A stretch of DNA of 64,000 bases from Mobula birostris (lineage: Eukaryota), in NCBI RefSeq assembly GCF_030028105.1, contig NC_092396.1, forward strand, positions 18,187,820 through 18,251,819. The letters run 5' to 3'. The position numbers and the translations under genes were made by a program. Shown in pieces: positions 2,975 through 61,600 of the stretch. Numbering within the stretch: position 1 is the stretch's first letter; each line of letters starts with the position of its first letter. The notes beneath the pieces are model-generated. The model was not told where the DNA came from. It saw nothing but the letters and a program-made list of their open reading frames with translations, and searched no databases.

Positions 2975-3300
2975 CAGCCACCCCCAACCCCTACCCTCCA
3001 CTCCTCCTCCCTCTCCCTCCTCCTTCCTCTCTCTCTCTCCCCCCTCCTCTCCCCTCCCCATTCTTCCTCCTCCCCTCTTCCCACACCTCCCTCTCGCTCC
3101 TCTCCCCATCCCTCCTCCCCACCCTTCCTCCTCCTCCCCTCCCTCCCCTCTTCCCCCTCACTCCCCACCTCCCCCTCCCACTCCCCTCTCCCCAGCCCAA
3201 CCCCTCCTTTCCTCCCCTCCTCCTCCCTCCCAACCCTCATGCACTCCCTCCCCATCACCCCTCCCTCCTACTCCTCTTCTCCCCTCCCCCTCCCCACAAG
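2975..3300. repeat. C-rich polypyrimidine low-complexity tract
   Basis: Almost exclusively C/T over ~320 bp. Confidence 0.9.
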
Positions 3301-18237: not shown

Positions 18238-18349
18238 TTACTCAGTATCCATCCTCTGTACAGCCTCCTCCACCAGCTCAGCTTTGAGATGAGTGACTGA
18301 TTCTGAAAGCACAGCAGTGGTGCCCGGTTTGTAACGGTACACGCCTTTC
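18238..18349 (-). CDS. psmb10: psmb10 exon 8
   Basis: [36 protein letters not shown]; 112 nt. Confidence 0.95.
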
Positions 18350-24300: not shown

Positions 24301-27300
24301 CTCGCATCTTCTGTGGGACCATGAATCTCCCATCTTCAGGGTAAACTCTTCTGCTTGTGCCCCCTCTCCCCTGGTCATTGAACTGTGCTGGGTCAGCCTG
24401 GCTCAGTGATGCTGAGTATCGGAAATCAGGGAAAAGTCACTGAGGAAGTTCAATCCCCTCCCCCTCAGTACAACGTAGACACTGAGGAAGTTCAGTCCTC
24501 TCCCCCTCAGTACAACGTAGACAGGATAAACAAAGGTGAATCAATGGATTTCTCGTACTTCCAGAAGTCGACCCCCCCCACCTTCTCCTTCCCCACTCCC
24601 TATTCTTGTTTCCCTTTCACACCTTCTCTTCTTACCTGCCCATCACCTTCCTCTGGTGCCCCTCCCCCTTCCCTTTCTTCCATGGTCTTCTGTCCTCTCC
24701 TACCAGATTCTCCCTTCTCCAGCCCTTTCTCTCTTTCACCAATCGACCTCTCAGCTCTTTACTTCACCCCCTCCTGGTTCCATACATCACCTACCACTTT
24801 GTACTTCTTCCTCCCCCTCCCTCTACCTTCTTATTCTGACTTCTCATTATTATTATTCGGCCTGAAACATTGACTGTTTACTCTCTTCCTGAGATGCTGC
24901 CTGCCCTGCTGAGTTCCTTCAGCAATGTGTGTGTTGCTGTGGATGTTCTCCACTTGAATTTCCAGAAGGCCTTTGGGAGAGTCTCGGACCAGAGGGCACA
25001 ACCTTAGAATAGAAGAACATAGAACATAGAATAGTACAGCACAGTACAGGCCCTACGGCCCACAATGTTGTGCCAACCCTCAAACCCTGCCTCCCATATA
25101 AGCCCCCACCTTAAATTCCTCCATATACCTGTCTAGTAGTCTCTTAAACTTCACTAGTGTATCTGCCTCCACCACTGACTCAGGCAGTGCTTTCCATGCA
25201 CCAACCACTCTCTGAGTAAAAAACCTTCCTCTAATATCTCCCTTGAACTTCCCACCCCTTACCTTAAAGCCATGTCCTCTTGTATTGAGCAGTGGTGCTC
25301 TGGGGAAGAGGCGCTGGCTATCCACTCTATCTATTCCTCTTATTATCTTGTACACCTCTATCATGTCTCCTCTCATCCTCCTTCTCTCCAAAGAGTAAAG
25401 CCCTAGCTCCCTTAATCTCTGATCATAATGCATACTCTCTAAACCAGGCAGCATCCTGGTAAATCTCCTCTGTACCCTTTCCAATGCTTCCACATCCTTC
25501 CTATAGTGAGGTGACCAGAACTGGACACAGTACTCCAAGTGTGGCCTAACCAGAGTTTTATAGAGCTGCATCATTACATCGCGACTCTTAAACTCTATCC
25601 CTCGACTTATGAAAGCTAACACCCCATAAGCTTTCTTCACTACCCTATCCACCTGTCAAGGATGTCACTTGAGAAAATAAATGAGGAATTTATTCAGCCA
25701 GGGGATGGTGAATCTGTGGATTTCATTGCCACAGATGGCTGGGGAGGGTTGATAGGTTCTTATTAGTCAAAAGTGCACGGAGAAGGCTGGAGAATGGGGA
25801 TGAGAGGGAAAATAAGTCAGCCATGATCAAACGGCGGAGCAGACTTGAGAGGGTGAGTGCCCTAATTCTGCTGCACTGTTTTCTGGTCTAATCTTCTCCC
25901 CAACCAGTCAACCCCACTTCAGCGCCAATGAATCAAGAGCCCTTAATCCTGTTGTGAGACTGCTCTCGCACCTGAACAGCATCTGTTTCAGCATCCGGTT
26001 AACGGTGGCAACTCGAGGCTGGCGCCCGGTCGACAGGCTGTGGAGCTGGATGTTGGACGAGATCAAATTCATTGTGATGTCAGCGTCAGCTGCCACTCCT
26101 GCCCCACAACAGCTGGGTAGAGAGAGAGAGAGAGAGAGAAGAAGTTAATATCACAGGGAGAGGGTGGGAAGTTAATGTCGCAATGAAAGCCTGTTGGAGA
26201 GTGAGAAGTTTGCTTTAGTGGTGGGGCATATTATTGGAACAATTCTGGCAATAAGCCTTCATTCAGAAGGGCACAGATCAACCAACAATGATTGTAAGGG
26301 ATTTGTTAAGGAGAGATTATGTCCACCTGACTAAATATTTTGCAGAGACAGAGGGAAGAGGAAGAGACTGGCTTTACTTGTCACATGTACAGTGAAATGT
26401 GTCATTTGCATCAATCGCATCAAGTCAGCAAGGATCGCGCTGGATCAGTCCACATGTGTCCCCGCGCTTCCAGAACCAATATAGCAGGCCCACAGTTCAC
26501 TAACCCTCACCCTAACTTTCCGTCTTTGGAGTGTGGGAGGAAACTGAAGCATTCGGAGGAAACACACACAGGGGAAAATCTGCAGATGCTGGAAATCCAA
26601 AGCAACAGACACAGAATGCTGGAGGAGCTCAGCTGACCGGGCAGCATCTGTGGAAAAGAGTAAACAGTCGATGTTTCAGGGCCGAGACCACGTGCCCCAA
26701 TGGAGGGTCTTGGCCCGAAACGTCGACTGTTTACTCCTTTCCATAGATGCTGTCTGGCCTGCTGAGTTCCTCCAGCATTTGGTGTGTGGCACCCAGAGGA
26801 AACCCATGCAGTCACGGGGAGAATATATAAATTCCTTACAGACATTAGCGGGAATCGAACCCCCATCTGTGCCCAGGAGGGCGGGAAAGGGAAGCAATCA
26901 CCAAGGGTGCTTTAGCAAGACTTTTGAACAGGTGACACACAAAGAGTGGCAAAGATAGGAATTTCAAGGGATACAAAGTAGAGTGGTAAATCTGATCCAA
27001 AAGTTGTTAGTAGAAGACCATTACAACTGGCGTTCCATAATGGCTCAGTTCCTTTCTTTTTATTTTATGTATTAATATTTCAGACTTAATTCTGGGTAAC
27101 AAACTAAAGAAAGTTTGCTGATGCTGTAAAAATTGGCCAGGTGATTGAGGGGGCTAAAAGCTCAGGATCATATTGCTGACCTGATCAATTGAGCAGTTGG
27201 ATATCGAATTTAATCCAGAGATGTGTGAGATAGTCGTTTGAGGAAATAGCAAATAGGATTGATGAGCTTACTTGGATTTTCAGAAGGCATTTGACAAAGT

Positions 27301-41844: not shown

Positions 41845-42350
41845 GTTACACGTGCAAAATGCTGGAAGAACTCAGCAGGTCAGGCAGCATCTATGGAAAT
41901 GAGACGTTTCAGGCCAAGACCCTTCCTCAGGACAGAGAAAGAAGGGGGAAGACGCTGGAATAAAAAGGTGGGGGAAGGAGAAGGAGGCTGGCTGGAAGGT
42001 GATAGGTGAAGCCAGATGGGTGGGAAAGGTAAAGGGTTGGAGAAGAAGAAATCTAATGGAAGAGGAGAGTGGACCATGGGAGAAAGGGAAGGAGGAGGGG
42101 ACCCAGGGGTAACTAATAGGCAGGTGACAAAAGGTACAAGGCTAGAGTGGGGAATAGAAGAAGAGGGGAGGGGAAGGGATTTTTTTTAAACCAAGAAATC
42201 AATATTCTTGCTATCAGGTTGGAGGCTACCCAGACAGAAATCCAGGTATTGCCCCTCCACGCCGAGGGGGGCCTTATCTTGGCACAAGAGGAGGCCATGG
42301 ACCGACATGGCGGAACGGGAATGGGAATCGGAATTAAAACGTTTGGCCAC
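41845..42350 (-). mobile_element. Penelope-like 3' fragment (similar copies at ~34545-34950 -, ~36620-37050 -, ~24560-24940 +)
   Basis: Same terminal repeat and purine tract as 14710-15300. Confidence 0.75.
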
Positions 42351-44360
42351 CGGGTGAATCCAACATCACTTCCTTCCCGGTGGGAGAATCCAGCTGCCGC
42401 TCATTATTCCTGCTTCCACGGGGCACCACTGCTTAGAAAGTGGAATTTCAGGACTCATATTGCACTCAACTAACTTGCAAGAGAATTCAGAGTTGACGCT
42501 CAAGTCACCAAGGAACTCTGGGATAGCAATTCATGGGTCACCTCACATTCCCTAACTGGGCACTTTCAACCCCAGGCCCAATGTGATGCTGCAGTCTGAT
42601 TCAAGAAGAAGGCATTGCATCAGTGCACATTTCCAGGGAACCACCACCTCATCCAGCAAAATACCAGGGGGAGTTTTGAACCTACAATGGGGGATGATGA
42701 AGCGGAGGCAGCATTTTCCCTGGCAGCGGAGCAGCTACTGAGCATGTGCAACATTAACAACCAAAATAAGTAATCTACTTCATCCCCAGAAAGCAAACTT
42801 TCCCAAAGAAACGACGTGTCACAAAAGAAGGCACTTAACAACAAACCCACTTTAATTTCCTTGTAGAACAGACAAAAGCAAAGACAGAAAACCATTAAGC
42901 CAGTGCAAGCTCTTGGCAAGGATCAGGCACTTGGTTTCCCCAAAGCCCGGCATTAAAACACCTATTGCCCCAAACCTCTTTTCAAATATTGAAAATATTT
43001 CACGATATAGTGTATTTTACCCAGCACTGGTAGTGTCGTTCTTTGGGATTAAATCCCCAAACTCTTCCAAGGAAAGAAACGAGCTTAAACGGTACCATTT
43101 CACAGAAATGAGTAATTACCCCGGAGCAGATCACGGAGGCCCCGGTGCACGAAGTCCAGGTGCCCCTGACTTTCCCCCCCTATCTACGGGCCGGGACACG
43201 ATGAGAGGAGGATCACAGGCCACGCCAGCTTTCTGGCAGGTTGCCAGTCACACAAGTCACCAAAGGACGGGCCGAGGCGCGAACAGCCCCAGACACGGAA
43301 GTGTTCCGGGAACCATCGTGCAGCGCAGGGGATAAATGTCACCCTAGGTAGGGGTGGGAATTTTTAAAATTTAGTTTGTGTTAATCACTGTTATTGTCTC
43401 AGTGTTTTGTTGTACTGAATTTGCAATAGCCGTATTTTTGTAGTAAAACAAAAAAAAACTGTGTCGGAGTTCCCGCTTTGGAAATCCCCGACGCTGAGGT
43501 AAAATCCCCTTCACCAAGAGGCCTCAGCTGAACCAGCGCGTCGGGCAATTACTATTAATCAATCGATTTACAGTCACGGCCAGTTGTCAATATGACAAAG
43601 CAACACAAATACTCCGTATTCGGCCTGCGGTCTACCAGGGTGTCTTCGGGGTCCAAGTGCCCGGCATATTGCAGTGTCCTTACAGGGCATGGCGTAGGGA
43701 GAGGAGTTAAAAACATATTTCCCCCACCCACCCACTCACCCACTCACACCGAGGTCTCTGTCACTACCACTGTGGTAGCTGGCGGACAGCGTTAAACTCT
43801 CCCCCACAAAGGCATCGCCCACTCTGAGAAAGGAAACTAATGAACCCTAAAATCCAGAGGGCTTGCCTGGCACCAGGGGGAAGGGGCTCAGCGAGGCCAC
43901 CTGGGCCTTTGCCCTCTCTCCTCACCACCTGCGGTGTGCCGACAGAGAGCGGAGGATGGAAGCGGGCTGTGTGGGACCCAGCCTTGCATTACACGGCGGA
44001 GTTAATGCCAGCTGTCAACTAGGATCCAACCCACTCCCCACTCCCTCACCGCAGCTCACTGGAACGGAGGTCAACTCTCCAGCCAACCTGGAAGAGAGGT
44101 GGACCCAAGCCAAGCCAGGGAAGCCTGTGGTGTGTGGGATCCGACACGGGATAAAGCTGCTCCCTGTGGAGACAAAATCCCCTTCGCTGCCCCGCTGAGC
44201 GGTTCCCTCCGCAGAGCCACAGCCCCAATCAATTAATATCAATCATCGATTTACAATCATAGACACTTGTCAATATGACAAAACAACACAAAGACTTGGG
44301 AAGCGCTTTTCTAACATGTCCTCGGTATAAAAGTGTCTCCACAGTCTCACTCGGCGAGGC

Positions 44361-47300
44361 TCAGAATCGCCAGGGTCTCCACAGGGTCCTGATGCTGGGA
44401 GCTGTAACTTGTTTCGCAGCGAGCCGACTGGAGGTGGTGTGGGGTGGACTCACAGTCCGGGCGTGTTGTCCCCTCTCTCCTCGGAGGCACTGCAGCAGTT
44501 CGGGCCCCTCGGTCTGGCGTGCCGACAAGAAGCAGAGGGCCTCCTGAAGACAGTGGGTGTAGCCGTTGTTGTAAGCCTGCAGGGGGTGTCTGGCCTGGGA
44601 TCTGAAGGCTGGAAAGAGACAGACAAGAGTTAGGCCTCGGGAGCTGCATTTGGAGTCAAACATTTGGCAGGTCTTTCTGGCCAGTAATTATCCCAACCAA
44701 CATCACTGACACAGATAATGTGGCCATGATCACAGTGCTGCTTGTGGGAGATTGCTGTGCACTAAGTATCTTTATACTTTATTGTCACCAAACAATTGAT
44801 ACTACAATGTACAGTCATCACAGCGATATTTGATTCTGCGCTTCCCACTCCCTGGATTAAAAATATTAAAGAATAAAAATAGTAAAATTAGTAAATATTA
44901 AAAATTTAAATTATAAATCATAAATAGAAAAATGGGAAGTAAGGTAGTGCAAAAAAACTGAGAGGCAGGTCCAGATATTTGGAGGGTACGGCCCAGATCC
45001 GGGTCAGGATCCGTTCAGCAGTCTTATTGGAAAGAAGCTGTTCCCAAATCTGTCTCCTTCCTTTCTGACTTTACAAGAATGTCCTTGTTTTATTCGTTTA
45101 TTTTTTTCAGTTGCAAGCCAAAGTTCGTACAGAAAGCAGGAGCAGGAGAAGGTCACCTAGCCTTTCACGCCTGTCCCAACTTTTCATATGACCCTGGATT
45201 ATCTGAGCTGGACTCCTCCTCTTCTGTGCCATTTCTCAATGCCCCCCTCTTCCTTGATCTATCAAATATTCATCCACCTCCACTTTAAACACATATAATG
45301 ATGCAGATTGCTATGTACTTCAGTTTTCTTTTTCAATATTTTTATTGATTTCTTACAAAAAAGAATACAGAGTACAGGAGGAGATATCATATATCAAATA
45401 CAATATATGTGAATCACACTTATAGTTTCATTACCCCATATTCGTGTAAATTAAATTAAATCATAATATTGAAAAGTAATAATTTTATTATTATACAAAA
45501 AAAATCTAAACCCACTACCGAGAAGGCTGTTTGGTAAAGAAAGAAAAAGGGAAAAAAAATCCTTATCATACAGTAAAACATATTATTAGCCAACATCTGT
45601 ACTTGATAACAAATCAAAGATTTTGAAAGTAATTCAGAAAAGGTCCCCACAATGTTAAAAAGTCTTGTCTTGATTCAGAAATTGAACAACGAATCTTCTC
45701 TAAATTGAAGCTTGACATAACATCGCTTAGCCATTGGGCATGAGTAGGCAGAGCAACATCCTTGCACCTAAGTAACAACGCCCTCCTAGCTATAAGAGAA
45801 ATAAAAGCCAAAATGTGCAAATCAGGAGTCTCCAAAATAATATCTTTTCCTCCAACAGTACCGAATAAGGCAGTCAAAGGGCTTGGTTTAAAATTGACTT
45901 TAAAAAGCACAGAAAAAGTTTGAAATACTTCCTTCCAGTATTTTTCAAATAAATGCTTTCAGGATCTATTTGTTGGAGGAAGTCTCTTTTCGTTTGAGCA
46001 GTTGTCAGAGTTAAAAAAATACACGTGGACTAAGATGTTAACTGTCCTGTGCTATCACCAGTGGGATCATCAGTTGATCTGCCACCTGTCTTCAGGAGTT
46101 TTGGCCCGCTTATGATCAAGACTCCCTCAAGGTGGTGGGCCAGCAGTGCTAAAGCACCACCTCCCACTGGTGAGCTTAAAAACTTGGCATCTGCCGCTAT
46201 CAGAGTTGTTGGTCACTTCCATCCAACAGATAGTCTGCTCTTCAGGTGTCTACGCAACTACTGAAGGGTTTGCAAAAGATGGATACACTGTCTGACTATC
46301 TGCCCCTCTGGACATACTTGGTCCACAGCCATGCTGATCCTTTCTCTGCTGCCTCAGCTACAGCCCTGCTGGTTGACTTGATCTCTCTTCTAGTGAAGCC
46401 AAGGTCACGCAAAAGTGAATGCAATAAACCCAGCTAAATATAACTTAACAAAAACCCACTTTTTTCGGTATTTACATATTAGATACTTCTTGCGGTCTCA
46501 ATTACAAACATTTCCTAAAAGTCCTGATAAGAATTTATTAGATGTAATTTTTAATTCGAAACCCTTTCATAATGGATCAATATCTAATATTTATGGTATG
46601 TTGTTGGGAATGAGAAACGTCCCTTTAGACAAAATTAAAAATCTCTGGGAACAAGATTTACAGACTTCAATTTCTGAGGAAACTTGGAATGAAATTTTAA
46701 AATTGGTTAATACCTCATTGTTGTGTGCCCGTCACTCCCTCCAACAATTTAAAGTGGTCCATAGGGCCCACATGACTAAAGATAAGTTGTCTCATTTTTA
46801 TTTGGATATATCTCCCTATTGTGACAAATAGGGAGGCTTCCAGACCATTCCGGCTGACCGGAAGTGCACTGAGAGCGTTAAGTGTGAAGGAGTTGGGTGC
46901 TTACTGTTCTGGCTAACAACAGATGGTGCAATCCGGGTCATATTACGATCGAGGAATGTGTTTGTAGACTGGATATTGAACTTTTTACTGTCGGACTTCG
47001 GCCACATTCCACCGAGATACAACACTGGACGGCACGGGAGGTCGTTCCTGCCTGTGGCCATCGAATGTGCAGCTCCTCCCATGGAGGGTCAGACACGCTG
47101 AGCCAATAGACTGGTCCTGGACTTACTTTCCATCTGGCATAGTTTGCATTTTGTTGTTTGATTGTTTGTGGTTTTTGTATTGCTATATTTATGCTCTATT
47201 CTTGGTTGGTGCGGCTGTAATGAAACCCAATTTCCCTCGGGATTAATAAAGTGTATCTATCTATCTATCAAATCTAACAATGGAGAAGCTTCATTAATTC

Positions 47301-48638
47301 ATATGTTCTGTACTTCAGTTTTAAAGTTTTCTTTGGTAGTGATGTCCCCTGTCTGAGATGGTCACAGTAGGGGGAACATCACAACATCTGCTCTTTCAGG
47401 ATGATGTATGTTTGAAGAAGGACCCCTTTCATTCTTCTTAAACTCTGAGGAATACAGGTCCAAACCATTTACTCTGTCTTGGCAGGACAACCCTGTCATC
47501 TCAAGAATTAGGCTTGTGTATCTGCTTTGTACTACCTCCAATCTTTTATTCCAGGTAAGGCAACTGGGACTCTGTACTGTATTCCAGGTGCAAACTCACC
47601 AACACCTGTATAATTGATCAAAATCACCCTGTTTTTAAACAGTTTTTGCCTTCTTAACAGTTTGTTCTACTTGCCTGCGAGCTTTTTGTGATTCATGCAC
47701 TGGAACATCCAGATCCTTCTGAACTTTACCAATTTGCGGTATCTCCCTTTTGATAATCCGCATTCTGATTTCTCTTGCTGACGTGCTTGATCTGATGCTT
47801 CCCACATTAATCTCACTCACCCAGTCCCACAGCATTCTCATCACAACATGCTCTTCCACACATTCTTATCTCATCGGTAAATTTAATTTCATTCCTTCTT
47901 CCAGGTCACGAATGTAAGTAGTGAATAACTGTGGGACAAGAACTGATCAGCAGAAGTCCACTAGTTATTTCCATCTGGTCTGAAAAGTTTTATTAGATTC
48001 AACTTTCCCAAATGAGTAAATAGTTCCTTTTTGATTATTGACTCTAGCATCCTGCCATTTAAAGATGATGAGCAAACTGACCTGTAGATTCCTGGCTTTT
48101 AATTTTTTTGAACCCGAGCGTCACACTGGTTGTTTCCCAATATTTTGTTACCCTGCACGAGTTTAACCTCCCACTGAGCCAGGTGCCGTATTCAGTTTGG
48201 CACCTCAGCGTTCCCAGTGATTGGGAGAAGCTGGAATAGTCCGGGAAACACTCACCAAGCAGGTGGTGATGCCTCAGGAAGCTCACACATCTTTCCAAGA
48301 TCTCAGCTTTCTCCAGTCTGTAGTTCGGCTCCGAGTGAAACTCCCTCTCCAACAATCCCTTTAGCTGCACAATGTGGATGCGATCTCTGCGCCGTTTCTC
48401 CACCGCGGGTTTCATCAGCTGCGGGACAAGGGGAGAGAAACAGCTCAGCAAGGGATTGGCAGCCCCCCCCCCCCCACCACCACAAAACCTGCCCTCTCGC
48501 CATCTCCTTCTGGCTCAGAAACACCAGCCCCAGAACCCCCTCCGTCTCACCCTCACTTACCCCACATGGTTCTCTGCAGCTGACCCTGGGTTTGGTACCT
48601 TCCCTCAGGCGCCGACCGGCAGCGGTGCCCGGAGACAT
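44361..48638 (-). CDS. hes5: HES5-like bHLH-Orange-WRPW repressor, copy A (exons 48638-48585, 48418-48256, 44608-44361; 154 aa; 2-aa deletion in helix 1)
   Basis: Three exons with the whole bHLH in exon 2 (HES5 layout). LMKPAVEKRRRDRIH--IVQLKGLLEREF...LEKAEILE; Orange YNNGYTHCLQEALCFL; ends WRPWRF*. An alternative in-frame exon-1 donor lies 24 nt further in. Confidence 0.85.
45314..47322 (-). mobile_element. L1-clade LINE with 5' inversion, 14-bp TSD and two nested insertions, hes5-A intron 2
   Basis: TSD TGTACTTCAGTTTT at 45314-45327 and 47309-47322; ORF2 3' end on minus (45328-45947); upstream ORF2 segment on plus (45948-47308). Confidence 0.85.
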
Positions 48639-49022
48639 GTCTGCTGGGCTGAGCGTGAAGGTGAAGCCCAGCGCGGACCGTGTGAGTGAGAGGCACTGAC
48701 TGATCCAGCTCTCTGAGGCCGGCCTGGGCAGCTGCTGTATTTAAAGGCCGATATTAGCATGACAAAGTGTGGGGCTCTGCTCCCACTCGAGTTCCCACAC
48801 TCACCAGCCAATCCCCCAACTCACTGACAGCACAATAGACGTGTGCCCGGCTACACGGGCAATTAGTGACGGGATCGGCCTCCGTATTGTGGGCAGGGCG
48901 GCCTGAATCTCTGAGGGCCATCTGGACAGCAAGTGAGTCTCACAAATCCCAGGATATTAATGTCGGCACATCCTGGGAAAGTGGCTGGAGGTGGGAGCGA
49001 GGGACAGCTCCCATGTCAGAAT
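48242..49022. repeat. Left arm of ~780-bp near-perfect inverted repeat (hes5-A promoter to exon 2)
   Basis: Reverse complement of 56494-57280, differing by a handful of substitutions and one 6-nt indel. Confidence 0.97.
48738..48812 (-). promoter_or_regulatory. hes5-A promoter: same module as copy B
   Basis: On plus: TATTTAAA 48738-45; ATTAGCATGACAAAG 48753-67; TTCCCACA 48792-99; CCAAT 48808-12. Confidence 0.75.
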
Positions 49023-50397
49023 TAACAGTGTTGCTGTTTGACATCTGGTTCTGGAGAGTCTGGCATTGTTTAAAACACAATCATGTGCCAATTATAGTGG
49101 CTTTGTTTCGCTTGGTTAAAGTGTCTGACATCTCACAGATGGGCAGAGCGGCCACAGGGACGGGAAATTCATCAGCAGCTACAGAGGATCAGAAGCAGAA
49201 TCCTGTTTATTATCTGTGACATAAGTCCTGAAATTTGTTGTTTTGTGCCAGCAGTAAAGTGCAGTCACAACTATAAGGTACAGCAGAAAGGTAAATAAAT
49301 AGTGTAAAAGAGAAATATTAAGGATGAGGGTTCGGAGACTAGGAGGCACATGATAAAGTAGGCCATAATCAGCATGGTTTCCTTAAGGGAAAATCTTGCC
49401 TGACAAATTTGTTGGAATTATTTGAGGAAACAACAGGCAGAATAGACAAAGGAGAGTCAATAGATTTTGTTTACTTGGATTTTCAGAAGGCCTTTGACAA
49501 GGTGCTGCACATGAGGCTAGTTAACAAGATAAGAGCCCATGGTATTACAGGAAAGATACTAGCATAGGTAGAAGATCAGCTGACCAACAGGAGGCAAGGA
49601 GGTGGAATAAAGGGGGCCTTTTCTGATTGGCTGCCCGTGACAACTGGTGTTCTACAGGGGTCGGTGTTGGGATTGCTTATTTTGACGTTACATGTTAAAG
49701 ACTTGGATGATGGAATTGATGGCTTTGTGGCCAGGTTTGCAGATGACACAAATATAAATGGAATGGCAGGCAGTGTTGCAGAATCTGCAAAAGGACTTGG
49801 AGAGATTGGGAGAATCAGCAAAGAAATGGCAGATGGAATGTCGTGTTGGGAAGCGTATGGTCATGCGCTTTGGTAGAGGGAATAAAAGCATATACTATTT
49901 TCTAAATGGGGAGAAATTTCAAAGATCAGAGGTGCAAAGGGACTTGGGAGACCTTGTGCAGGGTTTCCTAAAGCTTAACTTGCAGGTTGAGTCATTGTTA
50001 AGGAAGGCAAATGCAATGTTAACATCCATTTTGAGAGGACTAGAATGTAAGAGTTAGGGTTGTGCTGAAGTTTAGAAGAATGAAGGGGGATCTCATTGAA
50101 ACTATTGAATATTGAAAGGACCAGATAGAGTGGATATGGATAGGATGTTTGCTATGGTGAGAAAGTCTAAGATCAGAGGGTACAGTCTCAGAATAGAGGG
50201 GTGTCCATTTAGGATAGAGGTGAGATGGAATTTCTTCAGCCAGAGGGTGGTGATCTGTACAATTCTTTGCTGCAGACACCTTTGGAAGCCAAGTCTTTGA
50301 GCATATTTAAAGCAGAGGTTGTTAGGTTCTTAGTTAGTCATAGTCTCAAAGGTTACAGGGAGAGGGCAGGAAAATGAGGTTGAGAGGGATAATATAA

Positions 50398-50605
50398 ACA
50401 GGAGGAATTCTGCAGATGCTGGAAATTCAAGCAACACACATCAAAGTTGCTGGTGAACGCAGCAGGCCAGGCAGCACCTCTAGGAAGAGGTACAGTTGAC
50501 GTTTCGGTCCTGACGAAGGGTCTTGGCCCGAAACGTTGACTGTACCTCTTCCTAGAGATGCTGCCTGGCCTGCTGCATTCACCAGCAACTTTGATGTGTG
50601 TTGTT
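50398..50605. mobile_element. Palindromic (fold-back) Penelope-end element inserted in a CR1 fragment
   Basis: ~75-bp arms CAACACACATCAAAGTTGCTGGTGAA...GACGTTTCGG and their reverse complement. Confidence 0.85.
50506..50541 (+). ncRNA. Minimal hammerhead ribozyme at the centre of a PLE fold-back
   Basis: GGTC-CTGACGA-A-GGG(TCTTGG)CCC-GAAAC-GTT^-GACT. Confidence 0.65.
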
Positions 50606-50881
50606 TGAGAGGGACAATATATCAGCCATGATAGAATGGCGGAGAAGACTCGATGGACTGAGTGGCCTACCTCTGCTCCTGCGTCTTAGGGTCTTATGGT
50701 CTTCCATAAATCAATAATAATACGTACTGGAAATTAGGAAAATATTTAACAGACCAGGCAGCACTTGTACAGAGAGGAAAAGAACTAATATTTCAGGTCC
50801 CATAAATTCACTCAGTCCGCTTCTGACTATTCACTTCCTTTTCTTGATCTCTCTGGAGACAAACTGTTTACTGTCTTTTAT

Positions 50882-51774
50882 AAACATACAAATTCCTGCA
50901 AATAAGACATTGCATTAGTAGCATATTCAAGAACGATGACCCACAAAGTAACGCTTCAACTGAATACTTTCCATTAGCACAGGAAGTTCATAAAGCATCA
51001 GTGTTTTATGAACTGTTCAAGCACTCTGTGGGTGAATCGTGTCACAATCTCAAAGCAGTATGGCAGGAGGATTGAAGATAATGAGTAGTCAAATATTTTA
51101 TCAAACGTGGGTAGACATATTAGGGAAGCGAGAGGGAAATTTATTCAATATAAGATAGCACACAGATATTATTGGACACCAACTAGACTCTACAAAATGG
51201 AGATTGTTGATAATAATTTATGCTGGAAATGTAAAAATGAGGTGGGCACATATTTTCACATGCTTTGGGAGTGTTCCATGGTTTGTCCATTTTGGTGTAA
51301 ATTTCTTGATTTGTTGGGGAGTTGGTCGGGTTCCACACTGCCCTTGTGCCCACGGCTTGGTCTCCTGGGTGATAGGACAATGACACCTAATGTAAACAAT
51401 GACAAATTTACTATTTTAAAGGTGGGCCTCATCACAGCTGCAAGAATTATATTGCAAAACTGGAAAAAACCCAGATGTCCCACTATGAAGGAATGGACTG
51501 AGGAAATGATTAAGACTTCATCATATAAACGCATGTTGGGAAGAATTAACAGTGAGGGAGAAGTGCAAGACGCGTGGGATCAATTTTGGTTGTATGTTAA
51601 TTTAAACTTAAATTAGAACTTCTTTCTGTTTCTAAGTTTTACTTGTTTTCCTGTCATGGGTTGGCTGTGTCAATATGCTGTACTCTACCTGCTCTATGAT
51701 ATGCTGTGCTGCTTTGTAAAATAAGAATAAATAATAATAAAAATATGAATTATGAAAAAAAACATACCAATTCC
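50882..51774 (+). mobile_element. 5'-truncated L1-clade LINE with poly(A) and 15-bp TSD
   Basis: Cys-rich CWKCKNEVGTYFHMLWEC; TSD AAACATAC(A/C)AATTCC at 50882-50896 and 51760-51774. Confidence 0.85.
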
Positions 51775-51779
51775 CCATG

Positions 51780-53095
51780 GCTAGCTTGACTATACCTCTT
51801 CCCACTCTACCTCCTGTAAAATTGCTATCTCATCTCCTTTGTCTCTGCCGCATCTGCTCCCAGGATGAGGCTTTCCTTCCTAGGACATAATTGATGTTCT
51901 CCTTCTTCTAAGAATGGGGTTTCCCTTCCTCCACAATCGATGCTGCCCTCAAATGCATCTCTTTCATTTCACCCCATTTTCCCACTGCCTTAACAGGGAT
52001 ACAGTTGTTTTTGTCCTCTGAGCCTCTATGAGGCTCCTCAACCAATGCATCATTCTGTGCAACTTCAACCATCTTGAATGGGATCCTACCACTAAACACA
52101 TCTTTATGTCCACCACTCTCTGCTTTCTGCAGGGATTGCTCCCTCCATGATTCCCTTGTGCATTCGTTCCCCCACTAATCACCCTGTCACATATCCCTGC
52201 CAACGACAGAAATGTTACACCTATTCATTCACCTCCTCCTTCAGCTCCATTCAGGGCCCCAAACAGTCCTTCCAGGTGAGTGAATACTTCACCTCCCAGT
52301 CTGTTGGGATCGTCCATTGCATCCAGTGCTCCTAATGTGACTCCTCTACATTGGTGAGACCCAATACAAACTGGGGGACCGCTTTGTTGAGCACCCCTGG
52401 TCCATCTGCCAAAAGCAGAATTTCCCGGTGGCCAACCATTTTAATTCCTTTCCTCATTCCCGTACTGACTTGTTGGTCCATGGCCTCCTCTTTTGCCCCA
52501 ACAAGGCCACTCTCGGAGCGGAGGGGCAATACTTCATATCCCATCTGGAAAGCCTCCAACCTGATGGCATGAACATCAAGTATTCTTCCCTCCCCCTTCT
52601 TTCATCTTCTATTCCACACTCTGGCCTCTTACCTCTTCTCCTCACCTGCCTATCACCTCCCCCTGGTGCCCCTCCTTCTTTCTCTCAGGGTCCATTCTCC
52701 TGCCCCATCGGATTCCTTCTTCTCCAGCCCTTTACCTTTCCCACCCACCTGGCTTCACTTATGAGCTTCTAGTCTTGGTTTGTCTTGTGTTTCTGTGATA
52801 TCATTCTGGAGAAACAAATTGTATCATTTCTTAATGCATGCATTACTAAATGACAGTAAAAGAGGACTGCTTGTCCTCATAATCTAATCTAATCTAATCT
52901 AGCTATCCTCCTTCCCCTCTCCCCATCTTTCTATTCTGGGGTCTTGCCTCTTTCTTTCCAGTCACGTTGAAGGTCCTCAGCCCAAAACATCAATTGTCTG
53001 TTCATTTCCATCAACGCTGCCTGACCTGCTGAGTTTCTCCAGCATTCTGTGTCTGTTGCTCTGCATGACTAACACCTGCAGAATGTCTTGTGTTT
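51780..53095 (+). mobile_element. Decayed Penelope-like element (RT thumb, GIY-YIG, terminal repeat)
   Basis: LLYIGET motif and VANHFNSFPHSRTDLLVHGLL...SLQPDGMNI; interrupted by another element at ~52775-52900. Confidence 0.8.
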
Positions 53096-56000
53096 AATAT
53101 TTCAAGTCAGTGAGTTTTCTTCTCCTTTTACGTTTTCATGTGGTTATATAATTCCCTTTGAAACAGATGCTTCTCTCAACAATGGTTTTGCAGTTTCTCC
53201 ATCCAGGTTTCATGACGTAGAACTGAATGGACTCCTCCTACACGCTCTTCCTTGACACACGTCATTCAGATCTCCATGAATAACCAGCTCCTCATCAGTG
53301 ATTAAGGCTTGCTTTCCTTCGAGTTGCCAGCTCTCAGTTGGTAGACTCCTGGAGCATGCACAGCATGGAGAAGCAGTAGTGTTGCTGACTCAGCACCTGT
53401 GACCCAGGTTCAATCTGGTGCCGTCTCTCTGGCTTTCGGTCCTGATGAAGTGTCTTGGCCTGAAACATCAACTGTTTATTTCCCTCCATATACTGCCTGA
53501 CCTGTTGAGTTCCTCCAGTATTTTGTGTCAGTTGCTCAAGATTTCCAGCATCTGCAGGATCATTTCTGTCTCCATGGTGTTTGTGCATTCTCCCTGTGAC
53601 TGAATGGGTTTCTCGTGGGTGCTACACTCTCTTCTTACTTTCTACAAATGTCCTGCGTGGGTGAAACGACCACCGCAAATTTTAGATTATGAGGACATGC
53701 AGTCCTCTTTTATTGTCATTTGGTAATGCATGCATTAAGAAATGATACAACGTTTTTCCAGAATGATATCACAGAAACACATGACAAACCGACTGAAAAA
53801 CTGACAAAAACCAGATAATTATAACATATAGTTACAACAGTGCAAAGCAATACCGTAACTTGATAAAGAACAGACCACGGGCACAGTAAAAAGTCTCAAA
53901 GTCTCTCGAAAGTCCCATCATCTCACGCAGACGGTGAACCTCCAGCGCCGCAAACTTGCCGATGCAGCATCCTGGAAGCATCCAACCACAGTCCGAGTCC
54001 GTCCGAAAACTCTGAGCCTCTGACCACCTCTCTGACACCGAGCACCGAGCACCATCTCTGCTGAGTGCTTCGACCCCAGCCCCGGCAACAGGCAATAGGC
54101 AAAGCCGAGGATTTGGGGCCTTCCCTCTGGAGATTCTCGATGGCACAGTAGCAGCGGCAGCAAAGCGGGCATTTCAGAAGTTTCTCCAGGTGTTCCTCTG
54201 TGCTTCTCATGGCTGTCTCCATCAAATCAGGATTGTGCACAGCCCCCTAGTTAACACCTACAATATCATTCAGAGCGGCCGCGCGCACTGCGTTGCGCCG
54301 CCACCTTCTCCTTCTCCTCCTAAACTGTACTTAGTCCTGAGGTGTGTGGTTACATTTGGGGAAGTTGGTGGAAATGTTTAGATGATTAGTGGGGGAATGG
54401 ATCACTCTAAGAGCCAGCATAGGTTCAATGGGCCAGCTTTGCATCATTCTATGTTGATTGGTAACCCGTCACAAAACTTTCTGTCTCCAACCTCCCTTCC
54501 TCCAACCCTCTGCCTTTGGTCATCTAACACATCCACCTTCTGACAAATAGCTATTTATCTCTCACTCTTCCTGCGAGTGACAAGTAGGTTAATTAGTAAC
54601 TTCTGGAAACTCCACGACAATCAGTGAAATGCCTCAGTTTGGATCAACCACCAACACAACTGGAGGATTGTGCAGGGGGCAGCCTGCAAGTGTCATCTTG
54701 CTCCTGCCACCAACAACTCACTAACCCTACCCTAAACACATGTCTTTAGGTTGTGGGAAGAAACCAGAGCTCCAGGAGGAAAACCACATGGTCACGGGGA
54801 GAACATACAAACTCCTTACAGCCAGCGGCAGGAATTGAACCCCCATCGGTGATCGCTGGCGCTAACCTCTCTGCTACTGTGCTGCCCTGACCCAGACAAA
54901 GAGCCTTTCACCCTGTGAACATGACCAGGAGCTAACAGGCTCAGGCACTGACTTGAACTTACGAAAGACCTCTGAGACAGCAAAGGGTGCATCTCAGAGG
55001 TGTGATTAAACAAATGCAGTGATATGGTAAGAGGTTATCTAAAGTACGGTGAAACAGGTTACTTTTAAAGACTTTTTAAGTCATAGAAGCAGAATGAGGC
55101 CCATTGAGTCTGCTCCACCATTCATCATTGACTATTAATTTACTGATGGCTGAGGACCAAGTTAGAAAAATAGGAAGTAGAGGTAGAGAGGTCTGGGGCG
55201 GGTAGATGAAGGCATGGCTGTCGTTGGTAGTAGGTAAAGTCACAGGAGACCAGGATTGAAGGAGACAACACCTCCTAAAAGGGAAGTGAATTTAGATACA
55301 TAGACATTGCTGGAGAGGGAGCTGGTGAGCATGTACAGGACAAGCTAATTATCTAGAGATAATTAGTTCTCTAAAGTTTTTGAACATATGAAAAACAATA
55401 CATGAACAAAGACTAACAAACAATCAATGTGCAAAAGAAGAGAAGAAGACATTATGCAAATAAAAAAAATACTGAGAGCATTCCTTGAAAGTGAGTCTGT
55501 AGGTTGTGGAATTAGATCAGAATAGTGGCAATTGAAATTATCCACGTTGGTTCTGGAGCCTGATGGATGTAGGGTAGTAACCATTCCTGAACCTGGTAGT
55601 GTGGGTAAGTCTCGTGTACCTCCTGTTCAGTGGAAGTAGTGAGAAGATGGCATGGCCTGGATGATGGGGTCCTTGATGATGGATGCTGCTTTCTTGTGGC
55701 AGTGCTCCATTAAATGTGCTTTGTAAAAAAGAAATTGCATTTAGACCATTTCAGGTTTTTTATCCATCGTCTTATTTTATTGAAATGCAGTGGTCTAAAG
55801 ATTTGAAGAGTGGGCAGGGAATGTTTTCTTTAAAATTTGTAAACAAAAAAAACTGATAAGGAAGCTGCTTTTGATTGCCCTGAATTCCCAATCAGCTCAT
55901 TAAATGGCAAATCAGTTCATCATTGTGGACGGAAGACACACGACACGACAGAAGATGGAATGTGGAGCGAAAACAAAGTGATGGATGAACTCAGCAGGTC

Positions 56001-56493
56001 AGGCAGCACCTGCGGAAGACCGATGGACAGCCAGTGTTTCAAGTCAGGTACTCTTGTGTGAATTGGAAACCTGCCATGTTTACCCGGTTGAAGATACAAG
56101 GTAACTCCAGTCCCATAATCGCACAGCTTCTCTGTGGGAATAGCTCAACAAGAAGCATATCCCAAATGCAAGATGCTGGAAATCCTGAGCACAAAATGCT
56201 GAAGTAACTCAACAAGCCAGAAAGCATCTATGGAAGGGAATAAACTGTGATGGGTTGAGATCCTTCATCAGGACATCCCATTTTGTCAGAGAAGCTAATG
56301 AGTGGTGACTATGCTGATGAAATCTACATCCCATCCTTCGATATTTTCTCCCTCACAAAGACAGCAGTGAGCCATTTGTAAATTGGGACAGCAATTCAGA
56401 AAGTGCACTTGAGAGCTGATCATCTCCTGTATCAGATTAAGTCATTGTCTGCCTCACAACCTGTCACAACGAGATGTTAATCAATGATATTTG

Positions 56494-57280
56494 ATTCTGA
56501 CATGGGAGCTGTCCCTCGCTCCCACCTCCAGCCACTTTCCCAGGATGTGCCGACATTAATATCCTGGGATTTGTGAGACTCACTTGCTGTCCAGATGGCC
56601 CTCAGAGATTCAGGCCGCCCTGCCCACAATACGGAGGCCGATCCCGTCACTAATTGCCCGTGTAGCCGGGCACACGTCTATTGTGCTGTCAGTGAGTTGG
56701 GGGATTGGCTGGTGAGTGTGGGAACTCGAGTGGGAGCAGAGCCCCACACTTTGTCATGCTAATATCGGCCTTTAAATACAGCAGCTGCCCAGGTCGGCCT
56801 CAGAGAGCTGGATCAGTCAGTGCCTCTCACTCACACGGTCCGCGCTGGGCTTCACCCTCACGCTCAGCCCAGCAGACATGTCTCCGGGCACCGCTGCCGG
56901 TCGGCGCCTGAGGGAAGGTACCAAACCCAGGGTCAGCTGCAGAGAACCATGTGGGGTAAGTGAGGGTGAGACGGAGGGGGTTCTGGGGCTGGTGTTTCTG
57001 AGCCAGAAGGAGATGGCGAGAGGGCAGGTTTTGTGGTGGGGGGAGGGGGGGGGCTGCCAATCCCTTGCTGAGCTGTTTCTCTCCCCTTGTCCCGCAGCTG
57101 ATGAAACCCGCGGTGGAGAAACGGCGCAGAGATCGCATCCACAGAAGCATTGTGCAGCTGAAGGGATTGTTGGAGAGAGAGTTTCACTCGGAGCCGAACT
57201 ACAGACTGGAGAAAGCTGAGATCTTGGAAAGATGTGTGAGCTTCCTGAGGCATCACCACCTGCTTGGTGAGTGTTTCCCG
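56494..57280. repeat. Right arm of the inverted repeat (hes5-B promoter to exon 2)
   Basis: Reverse complement of 48242-49022; spacer ~7.5 kb. Confidence 0.97.
56704..56778 (+). promoter_or_regulatory. hes5-B promoter: CCAAT, CSL/RBPJ site, SOX-OCT composite, TATA-like
   Basis: ATTGG 56704-08; TGTGGGAA 56717-24; CTTTGTCATGCTAAT 56749-63; TTTAAATA 56771-78. Confidence 0.75.
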
Positions 57281-58164
57281 AATATTTCTAGCTTCTCTCA
57301 GTGACTGGGAAGGCTGAGAATTCCCTGTGTAAGTCAGAGATTAGTCACTGACGCACATCTTTATGGGAATGAGTGTGGAAAAAGAACCCATAGAAAGATA
57401 GTCACTCCTGTAACGTGGGAAATGAAGGGATAGATTGTACACAGCAAGATCCCACAAACAGCTCCATGACTGTGTGACCGTGATTGTGATCATTTGTGCC
57501 AGCGGTATTGGTCGAGGCAGAATTACTGGTCCTGGATGATCTGCCCTGCTCTTCTTTAACACAGAAGGTCAGGGGTGTCAAAGGCTTCGGGGAGTAGGCA
57601 GGAGAACGGGATTGGCAGGGAAAATAAATCAGCCAGCATCAGATGATGGAGTAGGCTCAACGGGTAAATGGCCTAATTATGGTTTTAGGATGTAAAAATT
57701 AACTATAGAATTCTTTACATCCATGTGAGAGGTTCTGGAGAGTTAAGCTGGGGCCCTCTCTCTGAGAGGGAGGGACGGAGGTAAGGCATGGCGGGGAGGT
57801 GCCACAGAATGGGAAGAGATGATTATTGATCTCTGTTCATTTCACAAGGATGTTGGCAAAATGTCAAATGCTTGACTCAGTGTTGCAGCCGAGGCCTAAT
57901 TTTGTCTGTCTCCTCCTTCCAGCTTCCAGACCCCCCTATGCAGGGGAACGACGATGGCCACATCCAGTAAATGCAGGAGGCTCTCGGTATCTTGTCGGCA
58001 CACCAGACCCAGGTGCCCGGACTGCTGCTGTGCCTCTGGGGGGGGGGGGGGCAACATGCCCTGACCGTGACTCGTCCCCACACCAAACCACTCTCAGGCA
58101 GCTTGCTGCGAAAGAAGTGGAGCCTCCTAGCACCGGGACCCTGTGGAGACCCTGGCAATTCTGA
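56878..58164 (+). CDS. hes5: HES5-like copy B (exons 56878-56931, 57098-57266, 57923-58164); full-length bHLH, Orange domain frameshifted, WRPWQF retained; may be a pseudogene
   Basis: Spliced frame is open (465 nt, 154 aa), but exon 3 has -11 and +5 nt indels relative to copy A and a TAA (57968-57970) in the ancestral Orange frame. Confidence 0.7.
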
Positions 58165-58521
58165 GTGAGACAACAGAGACCCTTCTATACTGGGGTCCCA
58201 AGCTTTTGTGCTGTCTTGTGATATTGACAAGTGTCTGTGATTGTAGATCGATGATTGGTGTTAATTGATTGGGGTTGTGGTTGGATCCCGGTTAACAGCT
58301 GGCACGAGCTATTGACCATGAGTGTGATTTGTCATGGCGGATATCCTCCCATGGTGGAATCACCTAACTGTGTTCAGGAAGTTAGGGCTTATTGGTCTTG
58401 GTGAGGAGGGATGTGGAGACTGCTGTCACCTGAGCTGCTCTGAAGCTTATTGTCGATTTCTGCGAAATTGAAGCTTTCTTTGGAAGAATTGAGGATTTTA
58501 TCCTTTGCAATGACACTGTAA

Positions 58522-58640
58522 CAGTGCAGGGTAAGTCAGTATACTGGGTGAATAAGCTGCGTTTAGCAGTGCAGGGGAAGTCAGTATACTGGTGAATAAA
58601 CTGCGTTTAGCAGTGATGGGTAAGTCAATAAACTGTGTCT
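58522..58640. repeat. ~45-bp tandem repeat (2.5 copies)
   Basis: CAGTGCAGGGTAAGTCAGTATACTGGGTGAATAAGCTGCGTTTAG repeated. Confidence 0.8.
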
Positions 58641-61600
58641 TGGAATAGTTTCAATATTTGAAACCCCGTATGTTGAGTAAGTAAGGGTTGTTGGGGGATC
58701 ATATTGGACAGTTATCTTCTGGGCTTTGAGGAAAGAGCGTGGGAGCAGGTCAAATCGGACGATCATTGAATTGGCTTCGGCTAGCTGGACTGGCCGAATA
58801 TCCTTCTGTGGTTTTTCAGGTTGTCACTGTCACGATGGTACCTGGAACCTGCCTTCCAATGAATCTCCCCACTGTGTCCTAGGGAAGGGCAGGTACTTTC
58901 CTTTCTAATCCACATTTCAGAGTGCAGGAAAATCACTTCCCCGCCATGTGTGAATTTTGTTGCTCTGTGAAAGCTGATTTACTATTATGCATTAATTTTG
59001 TGATATAACTTTTGAAAGCCAGTCTTATTGTTATCTGTATGTTAAATGTGTGCTTTAATAAAATGTTGTATACAAACAGCAGATTATTCTCTGGTTATCC
59101 TGCTGCTCAGTACTGGTGTTGGGGTGTGCGGTTGTGCTACTGGACCAGTGCTGCTCCATACTGAACCCTGCTGGCCTTTCACCACAGAAAGCAGTTTAAA
59201 GAAACTTTTGGTTGGGCTCATTAATCTTGGCTGTGGTAAGCTTTAAATCGTTCAGCTGGATTCTTCAAGAACCAGTCAAACCTTGTATTCATAACTGTTC
59301 TTAGGTACACAGAGGTCCTGTTCTGAGAGTGATACTTACTAAACAGATGCTATCAAAAATCAGTCTGGAGAGAATCCAGAGAAGATTCATGAAAATGGTC
59401 CTGGAAATGAAAGGTTAACGTATGAGGAGCATTTGATGGCTCTGGGCCTTACTTGATGGAGTTTAGAAGAATGAGGGGGTGATCTCACTCAAACATATCA
59501 AATATTGAAAGACCTACATAGAGTGGATGCGGACAGATTGTTTCCTATAGTGGTGAGTCTAGGACCAGAGGACACAACCTCAGAATAGAAGGACGCCCCT
59601 TTAGATAAGGAGTAATTTCTTTAGCCAGAGGGTGGTGAAGCTGTGGCATTCATTGCCACAGATTAGTGAGGGGGCCAGGTCATTGGAAATATTTAAAGTG
59701 GAGATTGATAGCTCTTGCTTAGTCAGGGTATCAAAGGTTACAAGAACAAGGCAGGAGAATGGGGTTGAGAGGGATAATAAATCAGCCATGATGGAATGGT
59801 GGAGCAGACTCTAAGGGCCAAATGGCCTAATTCTGCTCCTATGACTTATGGTCTAAAAAGACTAATTAACTCAGCAACTATGTAAGATCTGAGCCCTGAT
59901 TACAGAGAGGGATCTCAATTACGGTTTTGTCTCTGTTGGCTGTGATCTACAAAGCCACAAATACATTTCCATGCGACCTCTACACATTTTTTGAGCCAGA
60001 ACTATTTTTTAATGTATATAAAGGATTTTTCTTCTGCCATACGTTGAATACAGTGTTGCCTGGGCAACCAGATGCCCTTTTGTCATAGATCACTGTCACC
60101 TGAGACACCTCGCAGCTGATGAGACAAAGAGCTGTGTTAGCAGGAATCTGATCCACGTCTTGTAAGGCCCATTGAAAGTCCAATCCACAGCGCTCTGACG
60201 GCTTTGATAGGGGAGAACAGCAGACCAAAGTTCTACAGAAGGGAATAACAACACAAGGCGCAGGAAGCATTCGGCAAGTTCGGCAGCATCAGTGGGAAAA
60301 GAAACAGGCTAATCTGTCAGTAACATTTGACACTGCTTATGTATTCAAAAAGTCTTAATCTAACTTTATCTGCTCCTCAGCTGTCAGATTGTTTTTCTGG
60401 TCTCACTCTATCAGAGATTTAGAAGCATAGAACATAGAAAACCTACAGCACAATACAGGCCCTTCAGCCCACAAAACTGTGCCAAACATGACCTTACTTT
60501 AGAAATTACCTAGGGTTACCCATAGCCCTCTATTTTTCTGAGCTCCATGTACTTGTCCAGGAGTCTCTTAAAAGACCCTATCATATCCGCCTCCACCACT
60601 GTTGTCAGCAGCCCATTCCACGCACCCACCACTCTCTGCGTAAAAAAACTTACCCCTGACATCTCCTCTCTACCTACTTCCAAGCACCAGTCCTAACGAA
60701 GGGTTCCAGCCCGAAACATCGACTGATCGTTTTCACGGATGCTGCCCGACCTGCTGAGTTCCTCCAGCTTGTTGTAAGTGTTACCTTAAACCTGTGCCCT
60801 CTCGTTCCAGCCATTTCAGCCATGGGAAAAAGCCACTGACTATCCACATGATCAATGCCTCTCATCATCTTCTACACTTTTTCTTTTGTTTCATTTCTCC
60901 TTCTAGTTTTCCTCTCTTTCCCCTTTCTGGTGGAGGATCCCAGGCACCTATTTTCTCTTTCTTCCGGATGCTGTTGAGTACTTCCAGCGTTTTCGGTTAT
61001 TATTTCAAATTTCCAGCATCTGCACTTCTAAAATAAAAATCACATTATTTGCTTTAGAGAGGTGTGGAGAGAGAGGGCAACCAGTGATAGGAAGCAACTG
61101 GGTCTGAGTGGACAAGACACACCACACACTTTAGAACTCAGGCATTTGATGCCATTGAAACTCGGACAGCAAGATTGCTACAACTGGAGCATAGGGAACT
61201 TGCTTAAGTGCCATAGCCTGGTTCATCCAACAAGGGACTACCCTACTAGATGTGATTTGTGACCACTGTGACCTCCTAGATCACGGTGGGAAGTAGTGTG
61301 GTAACAAGGGAAGGGGTGGGGGAGGGGGAGTGGCAGAGTGGTGATAAGACATAGTTCAATTTGTTAACCTTTACCAATCTGGGGCTCTTACCAAGCAGAG
61401 AACCCCAGACCTATCAGGATGCGTAAATGACTTACCTGGGCTCCTCTCGTGCTGTCTATCCACTTTGCAGAAGGTGCTGGCAGTCACTGTGCACCAGCCG
61501 TAGAGAGAACAAGTGTCCAGGGTGGTGAGGCTCATCGAAGGGCAGCTCAGTCCTGGATAGCATGGAGTTTCTCGAGGGTTGTTGGAATGTCACCCCTTCC

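Follow-up and report, generated by a model that had tools for sequence, protein, structure and literature searches.

A head-to-head hes5-like gene pair in Mobula birostris with near-identical 5' halves and a probable history of gene conversion and decay

Layout of the gene pair

The window analysed here, a stretch of 64,000 nucleotides (nt) of contig NC_092396.1 of Mobula birostris (assembly GCF_030028105.1, positions 18,187,820 to 18,251,819; coordinates below are those of the window), contains two hes5-like genes arranged head to head, gene A on the minus strand and gene B on the plus strand; a tblastn search of the window detected no further hes copy. The promoter, 5' untranslated region (UTR), exon 1, intron 1, exon 2 and first 14 nt of intron 2 of gene A (arm A, 48242-49022) recur as an inverted copy in gene B (arm B, 56494-57280), the candidate converted tract, across a 7.47-kb spacer (49023-56493). 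Pairwise alignment of the arms showed six substitutions in 781 aligned columns (99.2% identity), two in the promoter and 5' UTR, two in intron 1 and two, both synonymous, in exon 2, together with one in-frame gap of 6 nt. Identity stops 14 nt into intron 2; the next 38 columns match at 29 and nothing aligns beyond them. The original prediction, made from the letters of the sequence, had described an inverted repeat of about 780 bp with an abrupt loss of identity just inside intron 2 and clearly diverged third exons, and the alignment bears out each of these points with exact coordinates: exon 3 differs between A and B in 55 of 237 columns, as against 6 of 781 in the arms (Fisher p = 1e-30).

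Diverged, older homology lies directly beside the arm and again in exon 3 and the UTR. At the intron end 9 of 58 positions differ between A and B, and in the 3' UTR (A, 44217-44360, minus strand; B, 58165-58280) 24 of 125 aligned columns differ; outside the 5' 0.78 kb the genes are about 15-25% diverged or unalignable. This sharp-edged tract of high identity within older homology is the pattern that marks a gene-converted pair. All eight splice sites of the two genes are GT/AG. A perfect run of 300 nt within the arm was considered as a trace of multiple conversion events and rejected, such a run being unremarkable for seven randomly placed differences (p = 0.27).

Inverted arms of such high identity are known to trouble assemblies, and collapse, polishing or a fold-back read might have created the arm identity or the 6-nt indel; aligners can confuse conversion with inversion at such loci, and conversion at SIGLEC11/SIGLEC16 was once miscalled as inversion (PMC12770363). 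We consider an artefact very improbable here. The six arm differences are scattered, the flanks are unrelated, the third exons have diverged differently, the indel is in frame and is no homopolymer slip, and B is identical letter for letter to a RefSeq model, possibly one derived from the same assembly.

Both arms carry a block of promoter motifs, at 56704-56778 (plus strand) in B and mirrored at about 48738-48812 in A. In arm B, a motif scan placed there what we take to be a reversed CCAAT box (56704), a CSL/RBPJ-type motif (TGTGGGAA, 56717) and a TATA-like motif (TTTAAATA, 56771); these names follow general consensus sequences, applied without a chance control, and the motifs are candidates.

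Gene B has a frameshifted third exon

Coding exon 1 of gene B begins with the ATG at 56878 (56878-56955, plus strand). Exon 2 (57098-57266) encodes a full-length basic helix-loop-helix (bHLH) domain (Pfam HLH, 35.7 bits) with an Asn41His substitution (57140-57142) followed by Arg-Ser (57143-57148). Intron 2 (57267-57922; 656 nt) carries a repeat resembling short interspersed elements (SINE-like; about 57568-57681), and exon 3 (57923-58164) ends in WRPW-QF-stop, with WRPW at 58144-58155. The spliced product, a frame of 162 amino acids (aa), is identical to RefSeq XP_072101548.1 from Mobula birostris. Exon 1 is unusual, and we considered that it might reflect a wrong splice model; this was ruled out, the exon being alignable with its shark counterpart and identical in the RefSeq model.

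The original prediction gave B a full-length helix 1 and a frameshifted Orange domain, and both were confirmed. An 11-nt deletion early in exon 3 shifts the frame, the old frame meets a stop at 57968-57970, and a 5-nt insertion restores the frame for WRPW, so that frameshift and old-frame stop together break the Orange domain. Differences between A and B in exon 3 are spread almost evenly over the codon positions (17/78, 17/79 and 21/80). The ratio of nonsynonymous to synonymous rates (dN/dS), on small counts, comes to 0.76 when all codons are read in A's frame, 1.22 for the shifted segment in B's frame and 0.97 in B's in-frame part. Among 23 Orange residues, 20 are shared between Hypanus and A and 13 between Hypanus and the old frame of B; at residues on which A and B disagree, Hypanus sides with A nine times, with B twice and with neither once. 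The shifted frame is also open in A, and in 37% of 20,000 trials of random mutation it remained open; B's open frame therefore needs no selection. Selection on the new frame was looked for and gave no sign, either in the dN/dS of the shifted segment or in the random trials. Judged from these comparisons, exon 3 of B looks to have decayed neutrally. The RefSeq model for B, named HES-5-like, carries the frameshifted Orange domain, which calls for caution from its users.

Gene A lacks two residues of helix 1

Gene A lies on the minus strand and has a coding exon 1 of 26 codons (48638-48561, ATG at 48638) that aligns with shark exon 1, an exon 2 (48418-48256) that encodes the bHLH domain with Asn41His, an intron 2 of 3647 nt (48255-44609) that is homologous to B only at its two ends, and an exon 3 (44608-44361) with an open Orange domain and the ending WRPW-RF-stop (WRPW, 44381-44370). 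As had been noticed from the sequence, A lacks AGAAGC (Arg-Ser) in helix 1 and has an open Orange and WRPW exon; both were seen. The missing Arg42-Ser43, corresponding to B 57143-57148, falls between 48374 and 48373, its exact placement being ambiguous in a CA repeat. The Orange domain agrees with Hypanus at 20 of 23 residues and matches Pfam Hairy_orange at E = 0.0038, under the curated cut-off.

Ser43 is Ser in 144 of 144 other HES5 hits, and the pair at 42-43 is Arg-Ser in Hypanus and three sharks and Ser-Ser in Pristis. Because of this distribution, the loss of Arg-Ser in A is, on the residues compared, the derived state. The HLH score of A is 24.6 bits, as against 35.7 bits for B. Removing two residues where the basic region joins the core of helix 1 should, from helix geometry, rotate the DNA-reading face by about 200 degrees, and the deletion is accordingly predicted probably to abolish DNA binding. 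A literature search with all terms combined found no paper on helix-1 deletions, so this helical-register argument rests on general knowledge. AlphaFold2 monomer models of exon 2, built with the same 37 homologues, gave a predicted local distance difference test and predicted TM score (pLDDT/pTM) of 61.9/0.32 for A and 81.4/0.55 for B; these models are only suggestive.

Words from A's exon 3, searched against proteins of more than 142 aa, retrieved no A-type Mobula protein (0 of 31 candidates), and none stood among the best 120 of 1059 profile matches. These misses are weak evidence that an A protein is absent.

Both genes are HES5-type and share Asn41His

Both genes encode a bHLH domain (Pfam HLH) with the basic-region proline and group with HES5; the match of the domain in the PDB is HES1 (2mh3), and all of the best 120 profile matches carry HES5-type or generic names. 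The tree described below comprises HES5 rows only, without a HES7 outgroup. Neither gene has the helix 1 that is otherwise invariant in HES5: position 41 is His in both arms, whereas all 144 other HES5 hits (rows that are related and partly redundant, not independent) have Asn there, and A also lacks the Ser and the residue preceding it.

Both proteins end in WRPW plus two residues (RF in A, QF in B), a form that we call WRPW+2, whereas 128 of 146 HES5 rows terminate exactly at WRPW. The two-residue tail was considered as a lesion and ruled out, as intact shark and chimaera members have a tail of the same length.

A chondrichthyan hes5 subfamily that appears relaxed

We placed the genes in a midpoint-rooted tree of 41 rows, made of chondrichthyan hits and 14 bony-vertebrate HES5 rows; the profile that retrieved the subfamily members was built from these same sequences. 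A and B group with Hypanus and Pristis (100/96), next with Cetorhinus, Carcharodon and Pristiophorus (100/99), and then with 169-aa Callorhinchus genes (99/97), so that the window genes, the shark orthologues and the Callorhinchus genes are monophyletic at 99/97. The 5' halves of A and B are sisters with Hypanus outside, and exon 3 of A is nearer to Hypanus than to B; one model was found for each other ray. The sister relationship and the old homology beside the arm uphold the earlier proposal of an old duplication whose 5' halves were recently homogenised.

The WRPW+2 subfamily changes faster in rays than the conserved hes5 subfamily, for which both M. birostris and M. hypostoma have full-length models (172 aa). 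The batoid stem measures 0.34 in the WRPW+2 subfamily and 0.059 in the conserved one. Of the 52 residues of the bHLH core, 7 differ between Mobula and Hypanus and 9 between Mobula and Pristis, as against none of 52 for either comparison in the conserved subfamily; over the first 82 residues the counts are 11/82 versus 0/82 (p = 0.0007). In the Hypanus model, near-invariant basic residues are changed, the frame shifts after Orange helix 1, and WRPW is missing. The Pristis model reads on into intron 2 and has no exon 3.

The stop that ends the Pristis read-through lies at the same position in intron 2 as that of B's read-through frame (57267-57304, plus strand), and A has no stop there. The Pristis model may be the orthologue of B, or the intron-2 stop may be ancestral.

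Intact near-identical copies occur elsewhere in the subfamily, with 5 of 167 residues differing in Cetorhinus and 13 of 169 in Callorhinchus; duplicates that are kept alike, or recently made, are therefore usual in it. Among the best 120 of 1059 matches, WRPW+2 members were absent from skates, catsharks, carpet sharks, Heterodontus, Heptranchias, Hemitrygon and M. hypostoma, all of which have conserved-subfamily models. This patchy occurrence suggests repeated loss or missing annotation. Taken at the level of sequence, the WRPW+2 lineage appears relaxed and redundant, with apparent lesions in three ray genera.

Conversion and decay as the probable history

We think it likely that the locus reflects ectopic gene conversion within an old inverted pair of a relaxed, redundant hes5 lineage, to which a young deletion in A was added. 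The starting point would be an old inverted duplicate pair of the WRPW+2 subfamily, under weak selection because conserved hes5 exists elsewhere. Ectopic conversion, within a chromatid or between sisters, would repeatedly have overwritten the block from promoter to exon 2, where homology was continuous; intron 2 would have turned non-homologous, exon 3 would have escaped conversion because of that divergence, and the third exon of B would have decayed. Changes would pass between the arms by conversion, as Asn41His may have done, which predates the last conversion because both arms carry it, and the Arg-Ser deletion in A would have arisen after conversion last covered that site. The complementary lesions would then be a snapshot of decay, the old lesion 3' and the young one 5'. 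A new 5' lesion falls on A or on B about equally often, and complementarity therefore needs no design. Occasional germline inversion would be a possible by-product of such a pair, not its function. The locus would offer a clean, small case of a redundant hes5 lineage in decay among rays, in which 5' conversion still ties a broken paralogue to its partner; no publication on this locus was found by title or opening of abstract, in a search that left subscription literature largely uncovered.

Several observations weigh against this history. Sharks, too, change faster in the WRPW+2 subfamily (4/52 and 7/52 versus 0/52) with their genes intact; speed alone therefore does not prove decay. The lesions in the Hypanus and Pristis protein models could be assembly or annotation errors, and the two Cetorhinus accessions were counted as two genes from their scattered substitutions and not from coordinates. 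Exon 3 of A is still open (probability about 0.25 under random change of the size seen in B), and A was probably under some selection until recently, because its exon 3 stayed open and its promoter motifs were kept. AlphaFold2 gives a continuous first helix in A and B alike, and the lower confidence for A may partly reflect the gap of the query against the alignment. The frame of B is open back to WRPW, and RefSeq annotates B as protein-coding.

These last points would suit a reading in which both genes function, B as an Orange-less bHLH-WRPW repressor with a compensated frameshift and A as an antagonist that dimerises without binding DNA, or a weak segregating allele. B's 162-aa frame ends in WRPW-QF with the Gln of the shark orthologues, splice sites and promoter motifs are intact, and the last 30 nt of B show modest conservation, with only three differences (p = 0.046 for a fixed window), although this is lost once the scan over any window is corrected for (p = 0.80). 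Given that the shifted frame was open in A already and stays open in 37% of random trials, that dN/dS reaches 1.22 for the shifted segment and 0.97 where B is in frame, and that the deletion in A would be too young for an old adaptation, we regard function of both genes as distinctly improbable.

A possible inversion of the spacer

The original prediction held that a crossover between the arms would invert the spacer and join B's intact bHLH to A's intact exon 3, giving one canonical gene and a locus with two functional states. The geometry holds: crossing over on the distal side of the indel yields one open gene, of B's 5' half and A's exon 3 (164 aa), and one doubly damaged gene. The only zone in which a crossover reshuffles the lesions is the arm segment distal to the indel (57148-57280, plus strand; partner 48242-48373), which makes up 17% of the arm and has a longest perfect run of 102 nt; crossover in the proximal 83% changes no residue.

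The prediction of a canonical gene was not supported. Against a HES5 profile of 140 rows, from which the three ray models of the WRPW+2 subfamily had been left out, A scores 150 bits, B 107, the B-5'/A-exon-3 recombinant 162 and the A-5'/B-exon-3 recombinant 95, whereas the shark orthologues, themselves part of the model, reach 202-217. The better recombinant thus gains only 12 bits over A and keeps His where 144 of 144 other HES5 hits have Asn. Two functional states are also not borne out, the subfamily appearing relaxed and damaged in other rays; B-to-A conversion alone would repair A, without inversion.

A germline inversion polymorphism could nonetheless reshuffle the lesions, either rescuing one gene or, in the reverse direction, moving the deletion onto A. 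In the reverse version the deletion would have arisen neutrally in the already broken copy, an inversion would then have carried it over to the copy whose exon 3 is sound, and the reference would be the derived arrangement. Conversion copies a lesion and cannot move one, and this reverse history would explain the complementarity naturally; in addition, the geometry is right, the recombinant frame is open, and human inversions between inverted repeats recurred in 11 of 16 analysed (PMC3961182). We nevertheless consider such a polymorphism unlikely. The arms measure 0.78 kb, and even the shortest repeat listed for the 22 candidates in Table 1 of that report (PMC3961182) is twice as long, at 1.6 kb; 83% of the arm lies proximal to the indel where crossover is silent, the rescued gene would still carry Asn41His, and a single direct deletion in A is the simpler history.

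We regard as slightly more doubtful again the possibility that the spacer switches back and forth in the germline of mobulids, with its breakpoint on the distal side of the indel and the reference possibly a derived off state. If it does, populations would carry both "one open and one doubly broken gene" and "two half-broken genes", and the inversion, by recombining two distinct lesions, would act as an on-off control of a Notch-effector transcription factor. A polymorphic orientation with a distal breakpoint would be a rare inversion that complements two lesions in cis in a developmental regulator.

A programmed somatic switch, in which a site-specific recombinase flips the spacer as in invertible cassettes or V(D)J recombination, is the least credible of the alternatives and scarcely worth entertaining, as nothing but the inverted layout speaks for it. 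Neither strand of the window has a site resembling a recombination signal sequence at the tolerance used. Pfam scans of 285 frames of at least 70 aa that passed a complexity filter, exons of fewer than 70 codons lying outside their coverage, matched no site-specific recombinase family, and the arms are long homologous gene halves and not short target sites.

Comparison with known systems

On these similarities, conversion followed by decay would make the hes5 locus one of the same kind as SIGLEC11/SIGLEC16 and CTRB1/CTRB2. In primates, SIGLEC11 and SIGLEC16(P) lie head to head about 9 kb apart, and their 5' region has been converted to 99.3% identity in human; conversion of the functional gene came from a non-functional allele, and constraint on the converted exons was relaxed (PMC5701461). 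The hes5 pair shares with them the head-to-head layout and the probable conversion of upstream region and first exons. It differs in that the SIGLEC genes encode paired receptors, each with a distinct and functional 3' half, and a 4-bp frameshift allele segregates (PMC5701461), whereas the 3' half of B is destroyed and the tract measures only 0.78 kb.

At CTRB1/CTRB2, the 16.6-kb inversion HsInv0030 exchanges promoter, exon 1 and intron 1 and creates hybrid genes (PMC6145291; PMC6748972). Its mechanism, inversion between oppositely transcribed paralogues, is the one proposed for the hes5 pair. The CTRB inversion, unlike the one proposed here, has been genotyped; it changes the ratio of expression, both genes are functional, and the shared sequence covers exons 2-6 (PMC6145291; PMC6748972). 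The hes5 repeat is much shorter. Human recurrent inversions show the same layout as here, inverted repeats around a 5-10 kb spacer that flip by homologous recombination, but their repeats measure 1.6-32 kb and both orientations were genotyped (PMC3961182).

In the elephant shark, a trio of hes5 genes on Sc58 has been described as the "hes5.3 cluster" near nol9 (PMC8320183); like the window genes, these are hes5-like, have three exons and occur as near-identical copies. The Callorhinchus proteins of 169 aa that group with A and B (99/97) end in WRPW-QS, and they probably are this trio, by species, length and copy number (PMC8320183). The Sc58 copies are intact, unlike A and B, and the passages on them discuss neither conversion nor rays (PMC8320183). 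No nol9, pank4 or ppil2 was identified in the window.

Spacer and neighbouring sequence

The spacer consists mostly of repeat remains, with CR1-type reverse transcriptase and zf-RVT fragments and SINE-like repeats; Pfam matched RVT_1 and zf-RVT in it, and 47% of 49026-56490 matches elsewhere in the window. Rfam gave no match over 42000-60000. A hairpin with 84-nt arms separated by 14 nt (50427-50608, 93% identity) and an inverted pair of about 110 nt (about 52777-52887 and 53682-53790, 93%) could seed breaks or local inversions.

Downstream of the genes, 43546-43613 (minus strand) is a second copy of a 68-nt element of the 3' UTR, 85% identical to A 44230-44296 and 78% to B 58205-58267, and 58608-58663 matches 42980-43032 at 80%; the old homology therefore extends into the 3' flanks. 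No AATAAA lies within 1.86 kb past the stop of A (42500-44361, minus strand), where there is one ATTAAA at 42856; downstream of B (58164-59600, plus strand), AATAAA occurs at 58595, 58627 and 59057. In intron 2 of A, two opposed open frames (45617-45958, minus strand; 46397-46828, plus strand), without a Pfam match, resemble by eye the ends of ORF2 of long interspersed elements.

Exons of a beta2-type proteasome subunit lie at 25911-26108 and 18241-18546, both on the minus strand (Pfam Proteasome and Pr_beta_C); against the PDB the gene scores 69 bits with PSMB7 and 60 bits with PSMB10. Elasmobranch psmb10 is reported to lie outside the major histocompatibility complex (PMC10751288). The first 3300 nt of the window (1-3300) are GC-rich (52-54%), with long open frames and no Pfam match, and are possibly the promoter or first exon of some gene. 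Minisatellite arrays with units of 32, 35 and 39 nt occupy 10906-12340, 14147-14755 and 23016-23877, respectively.

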